Below are positions 992 through 13,084 of a stretch of DNA of 64,000 nt, one piece after another. The notes under the pieces are model-generated. The model did not search any database, was not told where the DNA came from, and saw nothing but the letters and a program-made list of their open reading frames with translations. The DNA comes from an uncultured Ruminococcus sp. (GTDB lineage: Bacteria; Bacillota; Clostridia; Oscillospirales; Acutalibacteraceae): positions 1,492 to 65,491 of the forward strand of contig CADBCC010000008.1 of NCBI GenBank assembly GCA_902793125.1. The letters are read 5' to 3'. The position numbers and the translations under genes were made by a program. The stretch's first letter is position 1. The number at the start of each line of letters is the position of its first letter.

Positions 992-2968
992 TTATATTTT
1001 CTCAATTCCCAGCTCTTTGAGATAGTTATACGTCTCATCATAAAACTCGCGTTTACGAGAGTGGTCGGAATCAGAACCTTCTGGGATGAAGATTACCATA
1101 CCCTGTCTGGCGCGGGTTAGAAGAACGCGGTAGGCGTTTTTGAGGTAGAGGCGCCGGTCCTCGTTGTTAACGTTCTGCCATTTGTTACCTGAAAAGTTAT
1201 TGTATGTCCACTTGCCATTTGTCATACGGAAGTCGGCATCCCAAGCGACAATAGTGTAATCAAGCTCCAACCCCTGAATGTCAAACTCCGTGACAACATC
1301 TTCCAGAGCATAACTGCTGCGAACATCATCTTTGCCGTTAAGGAACCAGTTTGCAACGTTAATATCATTTTTAACGAAGATGCCATCAGGTTTTAAGCGA
1401 ATTGCGCCGGAGCTTGCAAGCAGGCCATAACGTGTTGTTCCTTGACCTTTGCTCCGCACCCATTCCTTTGCCACGTTAATATTACGTGTAATATAAATCG
1501 GATATTTATCCCTAATATGATCATATAGTTCCTTTGCAGCATCAGTATCAATATCGAGTAAAGCCTTAACAAATGCTGCAAGGTCAGGTGTTCTAAATGA
1601 TCGCACTGAGGTTGCGAGGTGAAGCTTTTTATTTTCAGTTACATTAAGCCCGCCAATCATATCCTGCCATTCTCTGTCGCGGCGATACTCTTCGTCGTTT
1701 AGCTGCGGTGTGATATAGACATCCCAATCAGGGAAAGCCCTGCGAAGTGAATCAAACCATTCCGGCAATCCAGCCTCACCAGTGTTAATTTCTTGACCGC
1801 CGCCGACTAAACAAATAATAACCGACCAATCCGCGTGACGGTCCATTGTGCTAATCAAAAACTCGGGCTCGCTGTACTCAAAGTTGGCGACGCCCTTTTT
1901 TGTCGCCATAAAACTTGAAATCATCTCGCGGGTCCACGCTCGTTGAGCTTCATCGAAAATCGCGACGCGCTCAGGAGGAACATTATCATTACCAACAAAG
2001 GAATCGCGATACTTGTGAATAATCTGAATAAACGCAGAGGTTGAACGCAAGGCGTCCTTCTTAGTAAGCCTTTCGCCATTTTGTTTTGCCTGTTGAACAC
2101 TATCACGTGCGAGAGCTTCCTGCAAAACCTGTACAAGCGGGAAGTTACCGGAAAGGAAAACTGCGTGTTCACCCTCAGCCGCGTTTGATCGCTGAATTGC
2201 GATGTTAAGACCGACCAAGGTTTTTCCTGCTCCGGGAACTCCGGTAACAAAGCAAATGGTTTTTCTATGATAAGCTTTGCTGTACTCTATAATATTGTTA
2301 ATCTCGTCTGTCGTTACAGTAAGGTTTTCAACTCCAGCGTCACTACGCGTAATATCCTCAACATTGTGTCCGCGGTAGAGCGCTTGCGCAGCCTCAACGA
2401 TAGTCGGCGTCGGCAAATATTCAGAATTAACCCATTTGTTATAGTCAAAGTCTTGTTCATTATATTTCTCTACAACCTGTAAAATAGAGCTTCCAATGTT
2501 GCTCGCGTTGCAGCGCAGCGGCTCAATTATCTTCTCATTTTCTATAATTTGATTGTCAACTGCTGGCGCATTAGTAGAAATCATTATAGGGACAAGCAGC
2601 TTATCGTGGCTTTCCTTCTGGAAGTTACGCAAATCAAGTGCGTAATCGTAAACTTGGTCGTATGTAGATGCGCGGTACTCGCGGTCCCCGCACTTGAACT
2701 CAAGCAGAAAAACAATATTGCGATACAACACAACGTTGTCGACGCGCTTACCCATTCGCGGAATGCTGTACTCGAAAATCAACTCGCCTTCCTCGAGCTC
2801 TGAAAGCTGATCCTTAAGAATCGCAATCTCCTGCTGCCACGTGTTACTCTGCTGGATACGCGTATCGGCCGAGATGTCATTTGAATGGATAATACCGATA
2901 ATCTCAGCCTCGCTCTGCCGCATAAATTTTTCAGTTTTCGCGTGATAATAACACCTTAAATTGCGCAT
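992..2968 (-). CDS. PD-(D/E)xK nuclease-like domain fused to DUF2075/Schlafen-type P-loop helicase-like ATPase
   Basis: AGGAG RBS 6 nt upstream of the ATG. N-terminal D...EFK core (VDNVVLYRNIVFLLEFK). Walker A GVPGAGKT, Walker B-like IFDEAQR, C-terminal LLTRARQGMVIF (SF1 motif VI-like). Confidence 0.75.
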   Translation of the reverse strand: MRNLRCYYHAKTEKFMRQSEAEIIGIIHSNDISADTRIQQSNTWQQEIAILKDQLSELEEGELIFEYSIPRMGKRVDNVVLYRNIVFLLEFKCGDREYRASTYDQVYDYALDLRNFQKESHDKLLVPIMISTNAPAVDNQIIENEKIIEPLRCNASNIGSSILQVVEKYNEQDFDYNKWVNSEYLPTPTIVEAAQALYRGHNVEDITRSDAGVENLTVTTDEINNIIEYSKAYHRKTICFVTGVPGAGKTLVGLNIAIQRSNAAEGEHAVFLSGNFPLVQVLQEALARDSVQQAKQNGERLTKKDALRSTSAFIQIIHKYRDSFVGNDNVPPERVAIFDEAQRAWTREMISSFMATKKGVANFEYSEPEFLISTMDRHADWSVIICLVGGGQEINTGEAGLPEWFDSLRRAFPDWDVYITPQLNDEEYRRDREWQDMIGGLNVTENKKLHLATSVRSFRTPDLAAFVKALLDIDTDAAKELYDHIRDKYPIYITRNINVAKEWVRSKGQGTTRYGLLASSGAIRLKPDGIFVKNDINVANWFLNGKDDVRSSYALEDVVTEFDIQGLELDYTIVAWDADFRMTNGKWTYNNFSGNKWQNVNNEDRRLYLKNAYRVLLTRARQGMVIFIPEGSDSDHSRKREFYDETYNYLKELGIEKI

Positions 2969-3288: not shown

Positions 3289-3825
3289 TCACTTATCAAA
3301 CGAGCAAGTTCTTATGTACTGCTGTATATCAGCGCCTTGTTTCAGGTAGCGCAGGAGTATCTCGGCGCAGGCGCGGCTGTCGCTGTCCGCCTGATGATGG
3401 TTCAGGCTGATACCCAAGCGGTCGCAGTCGTCGTTCAACCTGTGGCTTACTCCGGGGTAAAGCCTTCTGCCAAGCTGTACGGTGCAGGTGTAGCGGGTGT
3501 ATGGCTTCCAGTTTATCCTATAATCGCGCAGGCATTTTTTCAGCACGTTCATATCAAATACGGCATTGTGCGCGACAAGCAACCCGCTCGACATAATCGG
3601 CTCTATCTCTTTCCAAAGCTCGGGAAAAGTCGGCGCGTTCGCAACCATTTTCTCGTCGATTCCCGTTAAATCAATATTGAAAGCGTCGAACCGCTGCTCG
3701 GGATTTACGAGCGAATAAAACTCGTCGACAATCTCGCCGTCCTCAATGACGGTGATTCCGATAGCGCTCATCCGATTGTTATAGCTATTCGGCGTTTCAA
3801 CGTCAAGCACAATAAATCGCGACAT
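3289..3825 (-). CDS. DEDDh 3'-5' exonuclease (DnaQ/epsilon-like)
   Basis: ExoI VLDVETP, ExoII AHNAVFDMNVL, ExoIII HHQADSDS. Start set at MSRFIVLDVE (AGGGGA RBS 7 nt upstream); in-frame ATGs at 3855 and 3936 are less likely. Confidence 0.8.
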   Translation of the reverse strand: MSRFIVLDVETPNSYNNRMSAIGITVIEDGEIVDEFYSLVNPEQRFDAFNIDLTGIDEKMVANAPTFPELWKEIEPIMSSGLLVAHNAVFDMNVLKKCLRDYRINWKPYTRYTCTVQLGRRLYPGVSHRLNDDCDRLGISLNHHQADSDSRACAEILLRYLKQGADIQQYIRTCSFDK

Positions 3826-3859
3826 TCTAAAGTCCCCTGAATCTTCACTTTCCATTGTT

Positions 3860-4612
3860 TTATAATTCTCTGGAAAATGGTTCTTTCTTTCCGTCAACTT
3901 TAACTGTTCCCCAATTTGTTGACAGGAACTGTTCAATTAATTCGTTATATTTTTCATAACGCTTAGGATGAATTGCAAATATATAAGAGCGCTGTGTTCC
4001 TCGATGAAAAGTTAGAACTATGATTTTAGCGCCAATCGACTCCAATTCACGCATTTTTGATTCCCATACCGATTGTTTTCTTCGGGCTTTGTGGCAATAA
4101 TATACAATATCTTTTTTGGCATTATAATAGTCCGCTAACTCACCGATACCTGCGTACTTTTCTCCGTTTTTTCTTGTGAGCTTATTATCCACAGCAGAGC
4201 CATTATCGGGATCGGCAAAAACAAGCTCAACACCATTTAATGCTTTCAACGCATTGTTATGCCAAGTATCTCTGATTGATTTTCTTTCTTGGCGAGCTGT
4301 TTCTGAAACAGTCGGAATTATATCGTGATAGTAAACCGCGTTAGGAATTATATTATTATCTTCTAATTGTTCGACTTTTTTATCATCCCTGAAAGCGAAC
4401 CTTTTTAGTATGTCGAAAAGCTCTGGATCATAACATTTGTCGCCATTCTCCCTTTCATTATTAAGATAGTTATTGATATTACCGTCAATAACTATTTTAT
4501 CGTTTTCACTTAGATACCAGTTAACTCCGATCTTTATACCGTGTTCAGAAAGAAATCGCAGAAGTCCATATTTCCCATAATCGCCGATGTCACCAATATA
4601 CTGATTTTTCAT
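3860..4612 (-). CDS. conserved-looking hypothetical protein (GDIGDYGKYGLLR and FADPDNG motifs)
   Basis: 250-aa ORF with AAGAGG RBS, immediately upstream of the exonuclease gene. The N-terminal GDxGDxxK..LL and central DPDNG motifs faintly recall the RlmJ-like methyltransferase-fold motifs GNxxDxxKH and DPPY. This is from memory and low confidence. Confidence 0.6.
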   Translation of the reverse strand: MKNQYIGDIGDYGKYGLLRFLSEHGIKIGVNWYLSENDKIVIDGNINNYLNNERENGDKCYDPELFDILKRFAFRDDKKVEQLEDNNIIPNAVYYHDIIPTVSETARQERKSIRDTWHNNALKALNGVELVFADPDNGSAVDNKLTRKNGEKYAGIGELADYYNAKKDIVYYCHKARRKQSVWESKMRELESIGAKIIVLTFHRGTQRSYIFAIHPKRYEKYNELIEQFLSTNWGTVKVDGKKEPFSREL

Positions 4613-5332: not shown

Positions 5333-5851
5333 TCATTCACCGTTCTGAACACACAATTCTCCGTAAAGCTCTTTGCTTAAGCTGAAGATATCCTTGTCAA
5401 ATAAAACAATAAATACATTCATTTCGTTTGCTGATAAAAAATTACATATTTCATTTACCGCTATTTGCAGCGCTTGTTTTTTCGGATAACCGTACACTCC
5501 TGCCGATATCAGCGGAAAAGCAACCGTACCGCAATGACTCTGCTTTGCGAGTTCAAGAGAGTTTCTGTAGCATGCAATCAGTTTTTCTTCCTCGTGATTG
5601 CACCCTCCTCTCCAGATAGGTCCAACCGTATGAATAACATACTTACAGGGGAGATTATACCCGTTTGTGATTTTTGCCCCACCCGTCTTGCAGCCTCCCA
5701 GTTCTCTGCATTCTCTCAGCAAATCGGGACCGGCAGCTCTGTGAATAGCTCCGTCAACGCCTCCGCCGCCGAGCAATGTAGTATTCGCGGCGTTTACTAT
5801 AGCGTCACATTTAATTTTTGTTATATCATTTCGGATAATCTGAACAGGCAT
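5333..5851 (-). CDS. macrodomain protein (ADP-ribose binding / O-acetyl-ADP-ribose deacetylase-like)
   Basis: [26 protein letters not shown] and YVIHTVGP motifs, typical of YmdB/MacroD-type macrodomains. Confidence 0.88.
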
Positions 5852-6811: not shown

Positions 6812-8146
6812 ATGGCTTATCTAAAGCGCAGAATAGACGTATTTCTTACTGAATGGAAGGAAGATGCGGACAGAAAGCCTCTGATTGTCAAAGGTCCCCG
6901 CCAAGTCGGCAAGACCGAGTCCATAAAAAAATTCGCCGACGCCAACTACGAAAGTGTTGTTGAAATAAACTTCTACGAGGAGCCCAAGTACAAGAGCATT
7001 ATAAACGACGGCTACAGCGCCGCAGATATTATCAAGAACATCTCTCTGCTCGACCCGTCCAAGAGTTTTGTAGAGGGCAAAACCCTGCTCTTCTTCGACG
7101 AAATCCAGGAGCTTCCCGAGATTGCCACATCGCTCAAGTTTTTCAAAACCGACGGCCGCTTTGATGTAATCTGCAGCGGTTCTCTGCTCGGAATCCACTA
7201 CAAGCGTATCGAGAGCAACAGCGTCGGCTACAAGACCGACTACGAGATGTACTCGATGGATTTTGAGGAGTACCTGTGGGCGCTCGGCTACGGCGACAAC
7301 TTCATTGAGGATATGCTCGCTCACATGAAAGAACTCAAGCCGTTCTCGGATGTCGAGTTCAAGGTTTTCGACAGGCTGTTCCTCGACTACTGCGTTCTCG
7401 GCGGTATGCCCGCGGTTGTTCGTGACTTTGTCGAAAAGAAAAGCTTTGAGGGCAGTCTCGCTACTCAGCGTCAGCTTATGCTCGACTATGAGGAGGACAT
7501 CCGTAAGTATGCCGAGGGGCTTGACCAGGGCAAAATCCTGAGTGTTTTCCGCAGTATTCCCGCGCAGCTCGCTAAGGATAACAAGAAGTTTCAGTTCACA
7601 AAAATTTCAAAAGGCGCGAGAGCGAAGGACTACGTGGACTGTATTGAGTGGCTGAATGACGCGGGGCTGATTAACATCTGCTACTGTCTCAACTTCCCCG
7701 AGCTGCCGCTCAAGGGCAACTACGACAGCTCTAAGTTCAAGATATATCTCCGCGACACGGGACTGCTGATTTCTATGCTCGACGAAGAGGCGCAGGACGA
7801 CCTGAGAGCTAATCAGAATCTCGGCGTTTACAAAGGCGCTCTGTACGAGAACATCGTCGGCGAGGCGCTCGTGAAATCGGGCTGTCAGCTTTACTATTAC
7901 AAGCGGGATAACTCCACCCTGGAGGAGGACTTTTTCGTAAGGACAAAAGACTCGCTCGTCCCGGTAGAGGTCAAGGCGGGCAACAACCGCTCCAAGTCCC
8001 TGCAGACGCTGATTTCAGGCAAAAATTACAGTGACATAAACTTCGGAATAAAACTCTGCCGCGCCAATATCGGATATCAGAACGATATCTATACCTTCCC
8101 CTACTTCTGTGCGTTCCTGCTGAAACGCTTTTTGAAGGGGAAATAG
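6812..8146 (+). CDS. AAA+ ATPase of the AAA_14/DUF4143 type
   Basis: Walker A GPRQVGKT and Walker B LLFFDEIQ. The ~440-aa length and overall sequence are typical of DUF4143 ATPases. AAAGGAG RBS. Confidence 0.8.
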   Translation: MAYLKRRIDVFLTEWKEDADRKPLIVKGPRQVGKTESIKKFADANYESVVEINFYEEPKYKSIINDGYSAADIIKNISLLDPSKSFVEGKTLLFFDEIQELPEIATSLKFFKTDGRFDVICSGSLLGIHYKRIESNSVGYKTDYEMYSMDFEEYLWALGYGDNFIEDMLAHMKELKPFSDVEFKVFDRLFLDYCVLGGMPAVVRDFVEKKSFEGSLATQRQLMLDYEEDIRKYAEGLDQGKILSVFRSIPAQLAKDNKKFQFTKISKGARAKDYVDCIEWLNDAGLINICYCLNFPELPLKGNYDSSKFKIYLRDTGLLISMLDEEAQDDLRANQNLGVYKGALYENIVGEALVKSGCQLYYYKRDNSTLEEDFFVRTKDSLVPVEVKAGNNRSKSLQTLISGKNYSDINFGIKLCRANIGYQNDIYTFPYFCAFLLKRFLKGK

Positions 8147-8190: not shown

Positions 8191-9081
8191 ATGGAAGAGA
8201 ACAGGAAAGCAATTATCAATGGATTTCTCGATATTACCAAACATTGGAATAACCCGAGAAAGTTTCTCAAAGATAATTATGATAAAGCAATCTGGTGTGC
8301 AATCGCAGACTTTACTTTTAGAACTACGGATAGAGTGCCTGAGAGTACTGCTGATAAAGTCGGAATGGAAGGCTTGTTCAATGCTTTGTGCCCTGAAAAC
8401 AGCGAGGATTCGTTGAAAAAGAGATTTATACATTATTTTGAAGAGGAGCAGAGGGAAGAAACGGAATTTGACACATGGCACGATACAACTTGTGGATATG
8501 TTTTGGACACTCTTCAAAAAATGTATAATGTACATTATGGGAAAGCACAAAAAATTGTAAATATGACATTTAAATATCTTTATTGTGTTATGGATGATAA
8601 AGAGGATTATTTTATGTTCTGTCATGTTCCTCTTGATTCTATCATCCTTGACTGGATATGGAGCATAAAAGATCAGATGAGCGACGCTTATCAATCTATC
8701 ATAGAAAATAATCCCAACCAAAAGAATCTGCCACAGAAACTACAGCATGGTTACTTTAAATCCTGGAGTAATCTAGATAATGACGGTGGTTTGGTTATAA
8801 AGGATAAAAAGCATTATTCATATCTATTTTATCAGAAGTTGCTCAGAGCATATTGCAAAGAGAAAGGAAACAAATACACGCCGCTTCAGCTTGAATTCTG
8901 TGCATGGACACAATTCCAATGGGAGCGTGCAGCCACAGAAATGTGTAAATATTCGCACTGGTTGTTGAAAGAAAAGAATTTGGGAAAAAAATATGGGGCA
9001 AAAGACTTGAAAAATGTATTAACAGAAGTACTGAATCAAGAATTAAAACTCATAGATTGGAATACACTTTCTTACGAATAA
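8191..9081 (+). CDS. hypothetical protein
   Basis: 296-aa ORF 44 nt downstream of the ATPase gene with an AAGGAAA RBS. No assignable motif. Confidence 0.55.
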   Translation: MEENRKAIINGFLDITKHWNNPRKFLKDNYDKAIWCAIADFTFRTTDRVPESTADKVGMEGLFNALCPENSEDSLKKRFIHYFEEEQREETEFDTWHDTTCGYVLDTLQKMYNVHYGKAQKIVNMTFKYLYCVMDDKEDYFMFCHVPLDSIILDWIWSIKDQMSDAYQSIIENNPNQKNLPQKLQHGYFKSWSNLDNDGGLVIKDKKHYSYLFYQKLLRAYCKEKGNKYTPLQLEFCAWTQFQWERAATEMCKYSHWLLKEKNLGKKYGAKDLKNVLTEVLNQELKLIDWNTLSYE

Positions 9082-9316: not shown

Positions 9317-9502
9317 ATGGCTAAAAAGAAAGGCGTATCAGGTAAAACGCATACTCAGAAACAACTTGATGATTACGCTAACCAGAATAACCCTAATAAC
9401 AAAGCTTACAAAGCCAAAAAGAAAAACCGCAGGGTACAGAAAGAAAAAAAGTACGACTACGGTATTCTTGAAGGCGAAAGCTACGGTTGGTGTGACGACT
9501 GA
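9317..9502 (+). CDS. small basic protein (61 aa)
   Basis: GGAGAAAGGAGA RBS and a downstream intrinsic terminator. Contains a QLDDYANQNNPNNKAYKA motif seen in many small bacterial proteins of unknown function (from memory). Confidence 0.55.
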   Translation: MAKKKGVSGKTHTQKQLDDYANQNNPNNKAYKAKKKNRRVQKEKKYDYGILEGESYGWCDD

Positions 9503-9603: not shown

Positions 9604-9642
9604 TAGAAGAAAACAGGCTGTACCCCGAAAAGGAGCACAGCC
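9604..9642 (-). terminator. terminator of the three-gene operon
   Basis: The minus strand reads GGCTGTGCTCC-TTTTC-GGGGTACAGCC followed by TGTTTTCTTC, directly downstream of the RES gene stop. Confidence 0.6.
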
Positions 9643-9650
9643 ATAATTTA

Positions 9651-10751
9651 TCATTTTACAACATTATAATCATATCGTAGATTATCAATTTTAAAAGTTT
9701 TTACAGATGTACATTTGAATAAATCTGGATAGAATACTGCTAAATTATATCCGCCTTGATTTAGTGTGCTTGTATATTCCACCCCTTCAAAAGGTTTTCC
9801 TTTTTCATATTCAAGTGTTTTTATAAAATCACATAAATACTGAGTTGGGACATAATCAAGCGGATTATCACTGCTCCTTAATGCTCGACCCATTTCCTGA
9901 TCGATTTTTTGGAGAACCGGCTTATTAATCAAATATTCCAGAAAATCAAAATCTTCATTAAAAGGACTAAATTGACTAATAAGTTTAAAATCAATAACCG
10001 ATATATCTTTTTGTAATTTAAATCGTCCAATATTGATAACATCAAATGCACCGGACCGTATTTCATGTATACATGTTTGTTCGCTATCCGCTAGATATAA
10101 TCTGCTTACTCCACTGGAATTTGCTCTACCTTCTCGAGCAAATTGTACGGGAGGGGCTCCCATTTCTTTCCGAGTATACTTTGTGTTTCCATGTCTCAAA
10201 CGTCCGCGAAATAGAATTACATTTTTTCTATAATCTTTTCGTAAATACGAAAGATAGGTTTTTAATTTATCAAGATTAATATAATCTGTATGGAATCGAT
10301 TATCGTGTTTTATGGAAGCAACAAAATCTTCCCAAGTATGATCTGATAAAATAGAGTGTTTTATTTTATAATCGTTATCGTATTTTTCAGGTACACCTAC
10401 AGGTGCATCAAATAGTTTGGGCGTATCAATGTATAGTGAGGAAGAAAGATTTATGATTATATCATAAATACTATGAGAATCTAATGATTCAGAAAAAATA
10501 TTCCATTCGTTTTTTAGCTCATCTGCAATCATATGTACATCCGCAGTATCATACCCTGAGGGCAACAACTCTTGTGGAGTATATATTGAAATCAAATCAT
10601 TTAAAAAATCTTTTAGGCTAATATTTTTATCTGTATCATATAAAAACACATTCTTTTTTCCGCAAACAGGACAATTCCCTTTTGCTTTTGAAGAACTTTC
10701 AATAATAGCTCTTACCTGACGATCTCTAAAACATTCATTGCAAAAAATCAT
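9651..10751 (-). CDS. zinc-ribbon N-terminal domain fused to a RES domain (predicted NAD+-consuming effector)
   Basis: N-terminal CNEC...CPVC zinc ribbon. C-terminal RES signature: REGRANSSGVSRLYLADSEQTCIHEIR (Arg, Glu) and EGVEYTSTLNQGGYNLAVF (Ser). GAGGAG RBS. The start overlaps the upstream stop (ATGA). Confidence 0.8.
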   Translation of the reverse strand: MIFCNECFRDRQVRAIIESSSKAKGNCPVCGKKNVFLYDTDKNISLKDFLNDLISIYTPQELLPSGYDTADVHMIADELKNEWNIFSESLDSHSIYDIIINLSSSLYIDTPKLFDAPVGVPEKYDNDYKIKHSILSDHTWEDFVASIKHDNRFHTDYINLDKLKTYLSYLRKDYRKNVILFRGRLRHGNTKYTRKEMGAPPVQFAREGRANSSGVSRLYLADSEQTCIHEIRSGAFDVINIGRFKLQKDISVIDFKLISQFSPFNEDFDFLEYLINKPVLQKIDQEMGRALRSSDNPLDYVPTQYLCDFIKTLEYEKGKPFEGVEYTSTLNQGGYNLAVFYPDLFKCTSVKTFKIDNLRYDYNVVK

Positions 10752-11698
10752 GACTGCTCCTCAATTTCGTCTAGCATTGTGCCAACCATTTCTATATGAT
10801 GCATGATAGATAATCTTTTTATAACTCCTAATCCAGAATAGGATTGTTGTTCGTACATCTCATTAAATTTTTGAATTGCAAGAGTATTTAATTTTTGTTC
10901 TTGATTCCATTTAACCAATTTTGTTAATGCTTCGTAAAACTTATTTGCTGGGTCAGAAGTATCTGTGTTACTATCAGAGACAAAATGATGTATTCTTAAG
11001 GATTTTTCTTCACCCTCGGAAGGATATACTATATGAATTGCGACCGCATAAGGTGCAAACCCTGACTCATAATAATCCTGCCCAACGATCGAAAAATCCG
11101 AAAAGCCAGTATATCCGTCCTCAGAATAATAAATATGATCATCAGAAAAAAACTCATCTTCACACAATAGATAATCATTATTACGAGCCAGCTTATTAAA
11201 CTTATCATCTATCATTATTCGATCGCCTTTGCGAACACGCCTAAATGAAGGTGAATAAGGTATAACACAGTATTTTGGATTGTTTTCAGAAAATGCAGAA
11301 AGCAAGTAATCAATATTATCATTGTTCATACAAATGGCAACCATTCTATCAAAAGGAATATTTTTTTTGCGTAAGCCACTTACTTCCTCGCTGCACCGAT
11401 GATTAACAATTATACCGGATAATACAGATTCTTTTATTTCAACAGAGCTAAATTGTTCCTTCAATTTAGTATTTTTATCCAGTTGCAAATCTGTGACAAA
11501 ACTTCCAACCGAAGGATTAACAATTAGAATAATAGGTTTTTTGTTTTCAATAAAAGTTTGGAGAGTGTTAATTAATGTCGATGTTACTTTTACCGGCTCA
11601 ACAATAGGTATAATCTTTTTGCTTAATCTTCCGTTAGTAATTAATTCACGTAAGGCTATTAATTCATTTTGTCTACCTCTTAAATATGGAAAATACAT
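10748..11698 (-). CDS. Beta-protein / sce7725-like family protein
   Basis: The N-terminus MYFPYLRGRQNELIALREL matches my recollection of the Pfam Beta_protein / NCBIfam sce7725 family start (YxPxLRGKxxELxAL). AGGAGG RBS 9 nt upstream. Confidence 0.6.
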   Translation of the reverse strand: MYFPYLRGRQNELIALRELITNGRLSKKIIPIVEPVKVTSTLINTLQTFIENKKPIILIVNPSVGSFVTDLQLDKNTKLKEQFSSVEIKESVLSGIIVNHRCSEEVSGLRKKNIPFDRMVAICMNNDNIDYLLSAFSENNPKYCVIPYSPSFRRVRKGDRIMIDDKFNKLARNNDYLLCEDEFFSDDHIYYSEDGYTGFSDFSIVGQDYYESGFAPYAVAIHIVYPSEGEEKSLRIHHFVSDSNTDTSDPANKFYEALTKLVKWNQEQKLNTLAIQKFNEMYEQQSYSGLGVIKRLSIMHHIEMVGTMLDEIEEQS

Positions 11699-11704
11699 AA
11701 AACA

Positions 11705-12556
11705 CTATCCTCCTATAATGCTACCAGATAAAAAGGTTGCCAGTTTTGTATAATCATTCTTATTATAGTGTGAAAAATAAACCAAAGACTTCAGTTCTTT
11801 CGGTACTTTTTCAAAGGATAAAATATCAGATACTTTGTTCCTAGTTTTTAATGTTTCCAGAAACAACTTATATGCTTTGTCTTTGGGAATATCTAAAAAA
11901 AGATCTTTACATTTAGAGTAATACTTTACCTGAGTAGTTACCGGTAATTTACCGTAATAATTCATAATAATTTGTTCATATTCAGGCTTATTTAAAATCT
12001 TAAACATAATTTCTAAGTCTAAAGCGTCATTATTGGGATTAGGGTCTTTCAGTTTTTGTATTCTATCTTTTGATGATAAAACATAAATTCCAACATCGGT
12101 ATTTTTATATTTTTCAAGCAATGTTTGTGCAAACTCGTTACAAGTAATAACACACACATGATTAAATGCCGTGTAATAGTTTTTTATCTGACTATCTAAT
12201 CTTTCAAGATTATCAAGTTCCGTTTTTATTTCATAAACAACTGCTTTTCCGTTTATTAATATAAAGTCAGCTTTAGATGTAGAAACAGGAATTTCTGTTA
12301 ATGCTGTGGTCGTGTTGATATTATGTACTCCCAGTAATAGTTTATTTAAAATTGTATTTTTATAGTAATACTCATTTCTATATTTTTTTCGCATAAAATC
12401 ATATATTCTGTTAATGGCGTCAGCATTTGTTTTTGCCGCTTCAGGGTCAACGTATCTTTTAACAATATTAGTGTATACCCCGCTATCCATTTTTTCAATC
12501 AACTCATGGAATACGGCTATTGTAAACAGCCGATTTAATATTATATTGTTTGCCAT
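11705..12556 (-). CDS. PD-(D/E)xK nuclease-fold protein (sce7726-like)
   Basis: Start set at the internal ATG preceded by AAAGGAGGA. Has a SKADFILINGKAVVYEIKTELDNLERL (D...E.K) core. The position next to a sce7725-like gene fits the sce7725/sce7726 pair (from memory). Confidence 0.6.
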   Translation of the reverse strand: MANNIILNRLFTIAVFHELIEKMDSGVYTNIVKRYVDPEAAKTNADAINRIYDFMRKKYRNEYYYKNTILNKLLLGVHNINTTTALTEIPVSTSKADFILINGKAVVYEIKTELDNLERLDSQIKNYYTAFNHVCVITCNEFAQTLLEKYKNTDVGIYVLSSKDRIQKLKDPNPNNDALDLEIMFKILNKPEYEQIIMNYYGKLPVTTQVKYYSKCKDLFLDIPKDKAYKLFLETLKTRNKVSDILSFEKVPKELKSLVYFSHYNKNDYTKLATFLSGSIIGG

Positions 12557-12595
12557 AGCCGAATCCTCCTTTTTAAGCAATATTTCCTTAAAATA

Positions 12596-12624
12596 ATTAT
12601 ACCAAATAAAACCTCTTTATGCAA
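12596..12624 (-). promoter_or_regulatory. sigma-A type promoter of the three-gene operon
   Basis: The minus strand reads TTGCAT, 17 nt, TATAAT, about 40 nt upstream of the first ATG. Confidence 0.65.
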
Positions 12625-12764: not shown

Positions 12765-12778
12765 TGGAGCTGATAGGC
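12765..12778. repeat. direct repeat copy of the tRNA-Thr 3' end (att-like)
   Basis: TGGAGCTGATAGGC is identical to 13009-13022 inside the tRNA gene. Confidence 0.8.

Positions 12779-13008: not shown

Positions 13009-13084
<76 letters not shown>

Follow-up and report, generated by a model that had tools for sequence, protein, structure and literature searches.

A mobile sce7726/sce7725/RES operon in an uncultured Ruminococcus, most likely a variant of known anti-phage systems

Three adjacent genes of an uncultured Ruminococcus sp. raise the question of whether they form a new anti-phage system or a variant of known ones. They lie on the minus strand of a 64,000-nucleotide stretch of contig CADBCC010000008.1 (the window) and encode an sce7726-family protein (gene 1), an sce7725-family protein (gene 2), and a protein with a RES domain (gene 3). 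The original prediction, made from the sequence, was of an abortive-infection module with a RES effector that targets nicotinamide adenine dinucleotide (NAD+), and this proposal is backed by apparent homology to two validated defence systems. The first is Gop-beta-cII, carried in the defence hotspot of satellite phage P4, which protects against lambda and P1 and in which Gop is toxic without Beta (Rousset 2022, PMC9122126). Its cell-death activity is triggered by the accessory phage gene orf184 (bioRxiv 10.1101/2023.04.06.535777). The second is aRES, comprising standalone PF18870 and RES proteins of 300–600 aa found in defence islands (Osterman 2026, Sorek laboratory, bioRxiv 10.64898/2026.01.28.702374). 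Judged by its sequence, the trio is most likely a variant of known anti-phage systems and not a wholly new one. The reading that the evidence slightly favours is an abortive-infection-type anti-phage cassette with a cII/beta-like core and an aRES-type effector, RES replacing Gop.

The three co-directional open reading frames (ORFs) form an operon, tightly packed in the order gene 1, gene 2, gene 3. Gene 1 (11705..12556, minus strand) encodes an sce7726/phage P4 cII-family protein of 283 aa, in which a predicted nuclease-like core is preceded by N-terminal helices and followed by a C-terminal half that is helical. Gene 2 (10748..11698, minus strand) encodes a 316-aa sce7725-family protein with a predicted alpha/beta TIM-barrel-like fold, a probable distant relative of P4 Beta. 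Gene 3 (9651..10751, minus strand) encodes a 366-aa aRES-type protein consisting of a zinc ribbon, a helical region resembling HEPN/RES-NTD1, and a RES domain. The stop of gene 1 and the start of gene 2 are 6 nt apart, genes 2 and 3 overlap by ATGA, and a GGAGG-type ribosome-binding site (Shine-Dalgarno) stands ahead of each of the three starts. The start of gene 1 is the ATG behind AAAGGAGG, the mechanical ORF beginning at a TTG at 12580, and independent gene calls on identical metagenome contigs again yield products of 283, 316, and 366 aa. An intrinsic terminator 3' of gene 3 (9606..9642, minus strand) was found by a terminator scan, with an 11-bp stem containing seven G-C pairs and a hairpin at 9642-9616 followed by a T-run; the scan gave five terminator-like sites in the region vs. 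1.7 expected. These features of the unit, from its strand and ribosome-binding sites to its junctions and terminator, are all present as originally described.

The promoter had been described as near-consensus, which holds for one of its two elements. Read directly from the sequence, the putative promoter (12596..12624, minus strand) has the stated form TTGCAT-17-TATAAT, with a perfect -10 that is extended by a TGG at the end of the 17-nt spacer, but its -35 matches TTGACA at only 3/6 positions. It is absent from the list of a consensus scan because of this weak -35. The same scan found no enrichment of promoter-like sites in the AT-rich stretch, with 21 vs. 20.9 expected from shuffled sequence. 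The promoter is plausible, short of demonstrated.

Gene 1 matches the NCBIfam sce7726 model (NF033832) at 6.5e-55 (185.9 bits, cut-off 70), and a precomputed annotation assigns it to the newer Pfam family PF26915 Phage_P4_cII. The PADLOC model 'cll', which stands for the cII of satellite phage P4, matches it at 4.1e-17. By BLASTP, gene 1 and P4 cII share 28% identity (E=2e-11) in an alignment that spans the D...ExK segment and sets DFILINGKAVVYEIK of gene 1 against ADLAIANGSLQAFEIK of P4 cII. P4 cII is itself a member by the sce7726 model, scoring 151 bits against the cut-off of 70. By these matches gene 1 is a bona fide member of the cII/sce7726 family.

The putative PD-(D/E)xK catalytic core of gene 1 lies at 12224..12268 (minus strand), where the checked translation reads D97-x11-E109-x-K111 (DFILINGKAVVYEIK). 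The claim of such a core stands as far as the motif is concerned, as D97, E109, and K111 are invariant among 77 homologues and again among 37 in the gene 1 alignments, but the structural matches to nucleases are weak and non-significant. The AlphaFold2 model has an overall predicted local distance difference test (pLDDT) score of 82, with the predicted core at a low-confidence 56-61. Foldseek with this model returned nothing below E=0.02 and no significant PDB match, though the weak matches include the nucleases CinB, the Cas4-family ACE1, YaeQ, CdiA-CT, and influenza PA-N. A PDB sequence search with the gene 1 profile likewise gave nothing significant; its weak PadR-like matches to residues 166-218 (E 0.2-0.5) were not relied on.

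Gene 2 is assigned to sce7725 by the NCBIfam model NF033831 at 2.5e-100 (336.2 bits, cut-off 60). With adjacent NF033832 and NF033831 genes both above the curated cut-offs at a 6-nt spacing, genes 1 and 2 are an sce7725/sce7726 pair in the NCBIfam sense. The AlphaFold2 model of gene 2 is confident (pLDDT 89, predicted TM score 0.89), and the closest PDB structures are TIM barrels, namely transaldolase, TrpA, and GGGP synthase, none of them below E=1e-3. Homologue alignments show many invariant polar residues in sce7725, which suggests catalysis or ligand binding.

The relationship of gene 2 to P4 Beta is more distant. The 'Beta_protein signature' first read into gene 2 does not hold at family level, the Pfam Beta_protein model (PF14350) giving E 0.037 and 13.9 bits vs. 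a cut-off of 27 over the N-terminal 36 residues only, whereas the model recognises P4 Beta at 4e-56. Alignment of the sce7725 and Beta families by hhalign gives 79-84% probability (E=7.7e-6 to 1.6e-5) over only 37-92 N-terminal positions, and reciprocal hmmsearch just 8-17 bits. Global hhalign failed, and a long alignment forced with a low maximum accuracy (MAC) threshold carried no confidence past the first ~100 residues. Both families share the N-terminal motif YxPxLRxRxxE...P and both adjoin a cII-family gene. Homology of gene 2 to P4 Beta is probable, not proven. P4 Beta was not among the BFVD structures that Foldseek retrieved with the gene 2 model. The best match there to the sce7725 model is A0A5J6TRS2, an uncharacterised 379-aa protein of Gordonia phage Powerball (E=2.6e-9, TM 0.64). 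BLAST from sce7725 or from P4 Beta does not reach this protein, which could be linked to neither family; in fold, it may represent a further, third branch found in phages.

Gene 3 matches Pfam RES (PF08808) at 2.8e-13 (50.6 bits, cut-off 23.2), as do 31/31 of its homologues. The best Pfam stretch covers residues 198-355 (9687..10160, minus strand) and contains the invariant R209, N211, Y219, E230, S328, and N336. The zinc ribbon (10662..10742, minus strand) has the form CxxC-x19-CxxC, with C4, C7, C27, and C30 invariant in 74 homologues and again in 31; the translations of both features were checked. Between these domains the protein appears related to the HEPN/RES-NTD1 type. PF18870 (HEPN_RES_NTD1) was found in 11/31 aligned homologues (best 7.7e-9), and the mid region of gene 3 aligns with plasmid proteins named in RefSeq as 'HEPN-associated N-terminal domain-containing', sharing W83, F86, W140, and N151-R152. 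RES fusions bearing an extra N-terminal zinc ribbon were already part of the 2013 description of the HEPN/RES-NTD1 domain (PMC3710099). Gene 3 has every invariant residue of the standalone ZnR-NTD1-RES proteins of Bacillus, Enterobacter, and Comamonas plasmids, and in a small tree standalone RES proteins are intermixed with those of trios. Identity to the enterobacterial plasmid RES proteins is only 22-24%, and a PDB sequence search with the gene 3 profile found nothing significant. The motifs quoted in the original prediction (ADFILINGKAVVYEIK, MYFPYLRGRQNELIALREL, CxxC...CxxC, GRAN..G..RLYLA....E, and YTS....GYNLAVF) are all in place, and its family calls of sce7726, sce7725, and RES are borne out by the profile matches given above.

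The trio is conserved. In a scan of one genome per GTDB species, 80 loci were returned with sce7725 at 44-55% identity, and 79/80 carry all three genes. A full-length gene 3 homologue lies directly downstream and a gene 1 homologue upstream in 78/80, while one further trio ends at a contig end; the exceptions are one truncated RES and one sce7725 alone (L078). Most junctions fall between -4 and +5 nt. The proteins of the trio diverge in a tightly correlated way when compared pairwise (Mantel r 0.92-0.95), and by this measure the three genes are inherited as a unit. The trio is also mobile and extends beyond this sample. At 27-36% identity it is found on plasmids and megaplasmids of Rhizobium, Shinella, Moraxella, Pseudorhizobium, and Ralstonia, where RefSeq labels the proteins 'sce7726 family', 'sce7725 family', and 'RES family NAD+ phosphorylase', and on an integrative and conjugative element (ICE) of Salmonella. 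The sce7725 family comprises 3439 clusters at 90% identity, vs. 268 for the Beta branch in the searches, and 1464 cluster representatives at 50%, of which 621 are below 1e-30. Its RES-linked branch spans Bacillota, Pseudomonadota, and other phyla. The idea that the third gene is swappable holds between distant branches, with Gop in P4 and RES here, but not within the sce7725 clade, where RES is fixed. Identical RES proteins were also seen in metagenome-assembled genomes labelled Anaerolinea and Oscillospiraceae (L021/L022), through either recent horizontal transfer or a binning error.

In the proposed mechanism, genes 1 and 2 would be the counterparts of P4 cII and Beta, the conserved core of Gop-beta-cII, and RES would occupy the place of the small two-transmembrane toxin Gop. 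In the P4 model, Beta keeps Gop harmless and a phage protein sets off cell death (PMC9122126; bioRxiv 10.1101/2023.04.06.535777). The TIM-barrel-like sce7725 and nuclease-like sce7726 proteins would similarly keep the RES enzyme inactive, sense infection, and then release it. With genes 2 and 3 coupled in translation, RES would never be produced without its partner. On infection, aRES causes growth arrest and NAD+ depletion, converting NAD+ and inorganic phosphate to nicotinamide and ADP-ribose-1''-phosphate (ADPR-1''P), and defends E. coli (bioRxiv 10.64898/2026.01.28.702374). Going by its family, an activated gene 3 would phosphorolyse NAD+ to the same two products, and this would lead to arrest of the infected cell.

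The role given here to gene 2 also draws on PD-lambda-2, whose third protein, 'related to a P4 phage antitoxin', is needed for defence although the toxin is neutralised without it (Vassallo 2022, PMC9519451). This result favours the view that Beta-like proteins sense or license, over the view that they are simple antitoxins. P4 Beta (L007 651-1718) matches the PADLOC PD-Lambda-2_C models at 8e-14 and 1.7e-8, which indicates that Beta-family proteins serve in at least two named defence systems; gene 2 has no match to these models. A broader and more tentative idea is that the sce7726/sce7725 pair is a widespread, effector-agnostic chassis for sensing infection, in which a TIM-barrel-like Beta component, as an enzyme or ligand-binding switch, licenses unrelated toxins. 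These would be Gop in P4, the HigBA-peptidase module in PD-lambda-2, and an aRES-type NAD+ phosphorylase here. If so, the RES-coupled form would be by far the commonest natural version, and would show how an otherwise 'standalone' NADase can come under external control.

Several points weigh against the reading of the operon as a cII/beta-like core controlling an aRES-type effector. The link of gene 2 to Beta is remote and limited to the N-terminal third, with no Pfam score above cut-off, and the PADLOC 'beta' model, which detects P4 Beta at 8e-188, has no match in gene 2. For gene 1, the nuclease fold is putative and unconfirmed, the argument for it being the invariant D-x11-E-x-K motif. Of the profile matches originally expected, RES, sce7725, and sce7726 were found, but Beta_protein was sub-threshold, and for PF18870 the Pfam search gave no match at E<=0.1 in gene 3 of the window; presence of PF18870 in aRES was defined as an HHsearch probability >80% (bioRxiv 10.64898/2026.01.28.702374). 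The aRES authors describe their proteins as not operonic (bioRxiv 10.64898/2026.01.28.702374), and as aRES works standalone, gene 3 may need no partners. The co-divergence of the trio could result from the linkage of adjacent genes alone, and its defence-island context is qualitative. Furthermore, an sce7726 and sce7725 pair with neither a RES gene nor a remnant is present on the IMG/VR viral contigs L109 (5146-6939), which also encodes a terminase and a VRR-NUC-like protein, and L110 (553-2303), so the pair can exist as a two-gene unit on phages. Finally, sce7725 occurs without either partner at L078 and on an E. faecium plasmid. Together with the RES-free pairs, these solo genes show that the modules are separable.

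On the E. faecium plasmid, p114-2 (L088, 4306-6513), sce7725 (339 bits) lies between an unclassified 229-aa protein and a GNAT acetyltransferase, which replace sce7726 and RES. The GNAT was not counted as an alternative effector, since no toxin model matched it and sce7726 is not the gene upstream. A sequence labelled 'Listeria phage LM 4-14-1' (L092) shares its gene set with the enterococcal plasmid, and the label may be wrong.

The main rival explanation, made possible by the occurrence of each module alone, is that the operon places two autonomous defence modules on one transcript with no cross-talk, a self-sufficient aRES and an equally self-sufficient cII-like/sce7725 pair with gene 1 as its nuclease effector. 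The RES-free phage pairs fit this explanation, as do the activity of aRES by itself and the standalone ZnR-NTD1-RES proteins that share the invariant residues of gene 3 on Bacillus, Enterobacter, and Comamonas plasmids. However, gene order is fixed and the junctions overlap or nearly abut in 79/80 loci, and the arrangement is kept across phyla at 27-36% identity, a stability greater than is usual for neighbouring defence genes, which tend to be reshuffled. The ATGA overlap further suggests that the products of genes 2 and 3 are made together in stoichiometric amounts. Independence of the two modules is thus considered unlikely, if the strongest of the rivals.

Somewhat less probable is a tripartite toxin-antitoxin or addiction module that stabilises its mobile element, with RES as toxin, sce7725 as antitoxin, sce7726 as regulator, and phage defence as a secondary effect. 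RES domains are classical type II toxins, Gop and Beta act as a toxin-antitoxin pair (PMC9122126), and the trio is found on plasmids, on ICEs, and beside recombinases. Nevertheless, phage protection has been shown for both related systems, Gop-beta-cII and aRES, and the trio is chromosomal too, beside defence candidates. The two roles are in any case not mutually exclusive.

It is very unlikely that the RES domain works by ADP-ribosylating a protein or a nucleic acid, in the manner of ParT, and not through NAD+ depletion. At least one RES toxin, ParT, does modify a protein, which counts for this explanation. RES also belongs to the ADP-ribosyltransferase superfamily (PMC9503650). Against this, gene 3 agrees in architecture and in its invariant residues with the aRES type, for which NAD+ phosphorolysis to ADPR-1''P has been measured. 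A metabolic or housekeeping function, with sce7725 as a sugar-phosphate-type TIM-barrel enzyme, is scarcely credible, since the weak likeness of the gene 2 model to transaldolase, TrpA, and GGGP synthase barrels and its many invariant polar residues are set against a patchy mobile distribution, low G+C, a toxin-type partner, the homology of gene 1 to a phage-satellite defence gene, and the lack of conserved metabolic neighbours.

The surroundings of the operon are those of an accessory region. A tRNA-Thr(GGU) gene (13009..13084, minus strand), called by ARAGORN and matched by the Rfam tRNA model at 61.5 bits, is a likely integration target bounding this region; the Rfam scan gave the tRNA only. 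An exact 14-nt copy of the 3' end of this tRNA (GCCTATCAGCTCCA) lies at 12765..12778 (minus strand), just upstream of the operon promoter. The direct repeat has two copies in the window (12765-12778 and 13009-13022, minus strand, 230 bp apart) vs. 0.17 expected, and it looks like an attachment (att) scar left by integration at tRNA-Thr. A search of the window turned up no third copy and no integrase. G+C is 31-34% across 9-13 kb and ~37-52% for most of the neighbourhood. The operon had been placed in an accessory island next to a tRNA, as its most AT-rich block; the accessory, defence-like context beside tRNA-Thr is supported, but positions 1-1000, at 26.5% G+C, are more AT-rich than the operon, which strictly speaking does not rank first. 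In other genomes the flanks of the trio differ even between identical proteins, and hold recombinases or resolvases, integrases, conjugation genes, DNA methylases, an HD-domain gene, and MNT-type genes.

Three neighbours in the window are PADLOC defence candidates: PDC-S41 (992-2968, minus strand; Schlafen-group-3 helicase, 1e-282), PDC-S48 (3289-3936, minus strand; DEDDh/RNase_T exonuclease, 1e-32), and PDC-S01 (6812-8146, plus strand; AAA_14 and DUF4143 ATPase, 7e-160). An AAA_14/DUF4143 gene is near the trio in the unrelated contigs L096/L097 as well. A Macro-domain protein is encoded at 5333-5851 (minus strand; Pfam Macro 1.6e-48), ~3.8 kb from the RES gene. Phages counter aRES with Macro-domain phosphatases (Adpp, removing the phosphate of ADPR-1''P) and with proteins that block the active site (bioRxiv 10.64898/2026.01.28.702374). 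The counter-measures known against aRES are NARP2, NARP1 together with Adpp, and aRad1. The proximity of the host Macro gene to RES could be detoxification or coincidence. Two further ORFs are kept in the identical metagenome contigs, a lysine-rich one of 61 aa (9317-9502, plus strand), convergent with the RES gene, and one of 296 aa (8191-9081, plus strand) with no Pfam, NCBIfam, or PADLOC match.

As to novelty, no name for the exact trio turned up in the literature searched, including that on RES-domain defence and 'RES family NAD+ phosphorylase'. The literature found on sce7725/sce7726, PF14350/Beta_protein, and NF03383x is limited to mentions in genome annotation. PADLOC 2.0.0 does not call the exact trio and recognises only the cII component ('cll'). 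The original statement that no named defence system of this composition was known is correct for the trio, but it overlooks that gene 1 is in the family of P4 cII, that gene 2 is probably related to P4 Beta, and that gene 3 is of the aRES type. What lacks a name is the combination of the three genes. Each half comes from a named and validated system, all three proteins already carry RefSeq family labels, and the trio is not a categorically new system.

The combination is nonetheless informative. The sensing mechanism is not known for Gop-beta-cII or aRES, and a natural cII/Beta-RES combination would supply the cII/Beta module with an enzymatic read-out (NAD+ loss and ADPR-1''P), making the role of cII and Beta directly testable. 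As PADLOC 2.0.0 sees the cII component alone, a common defence cassette is probably missed or mis-scored in genome surveys. Counts of aRES may also include members that are not standalone, and the trio would illustrate cleanly how one effector can take the place of another on a conserved core.

Among known systems, the RES-Xre toxin-antitoxins (MbcTA, NatTR, Res-Xre) share with the trio the RES catalytic domain and the NAD+ substrate. They differ in that the trio has no Xre/DUF2384 antitoxin and its partners are unrelated proteins. The original remark that no Xre gene is present is supported, as profile searches found no adjacent Xre or helix-turn-helix (HTH) gene and no HTH/Xre match in genes 1 and 2 or the neighbours. 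Gene 3 is also about twice as long as these toxins, adding the zinc ribbon and the NTD1 region. PD-lambda-2 resembles the trio as a three-gene, toxin-antitoxin-like defence system with a Beta-related third protein, but the partners of that protein are HigB-like and HigA-peptidase proteins, not cII-like or RES proteins.

The likeness to aRES lies in gene 3, which at 366 aa falls inside the range of 300–600 aa and has the RES domain, PF18870 being seen in its homologues and not in the window protein. The comparison of invariant residues is by way of standalone proteins of the same architecture, not the aRES sequences assayed in the preprint. Whereas aRES is standalone, gene 3 stands at the end of a conserved operon of three genes and has an ATGA overlap with gene 2.

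Gop-beta-cII, named 'Gop_beta_cll' in DefenseFinder and 'gop_beta_cll' in PADLOC, is, like the trio as proposed here, a three-gene, toxin-antitoxin-like mobile anti-phage cassette. Gene 1 is in the cII family, and gene 2 is about the size of Beta and has its N-terminal motif and a cII-family partner, but it fails the Beta_protein and PADLOC 'beta' models that recognise P4 Beta. The effectors differ. Gop has 133 aa and two hydrophobic segments in its N-terminal part, while the trio has a 366-aa RES enzyme with no similarity to Gop; the PADLOC 'gop' model has no match and the operon has no small ORF so placed. The layouts also differ, as in P4 gop and beta, in that order, face a convergent cII, whereas here the cII-like, beta-like, and RES genes follow one another on one strand. 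With a core akin to that of Gop-beta-cII and an effector of the aRES type, the system would be a hybrid of two known kinds, travelling as one mobile unit.

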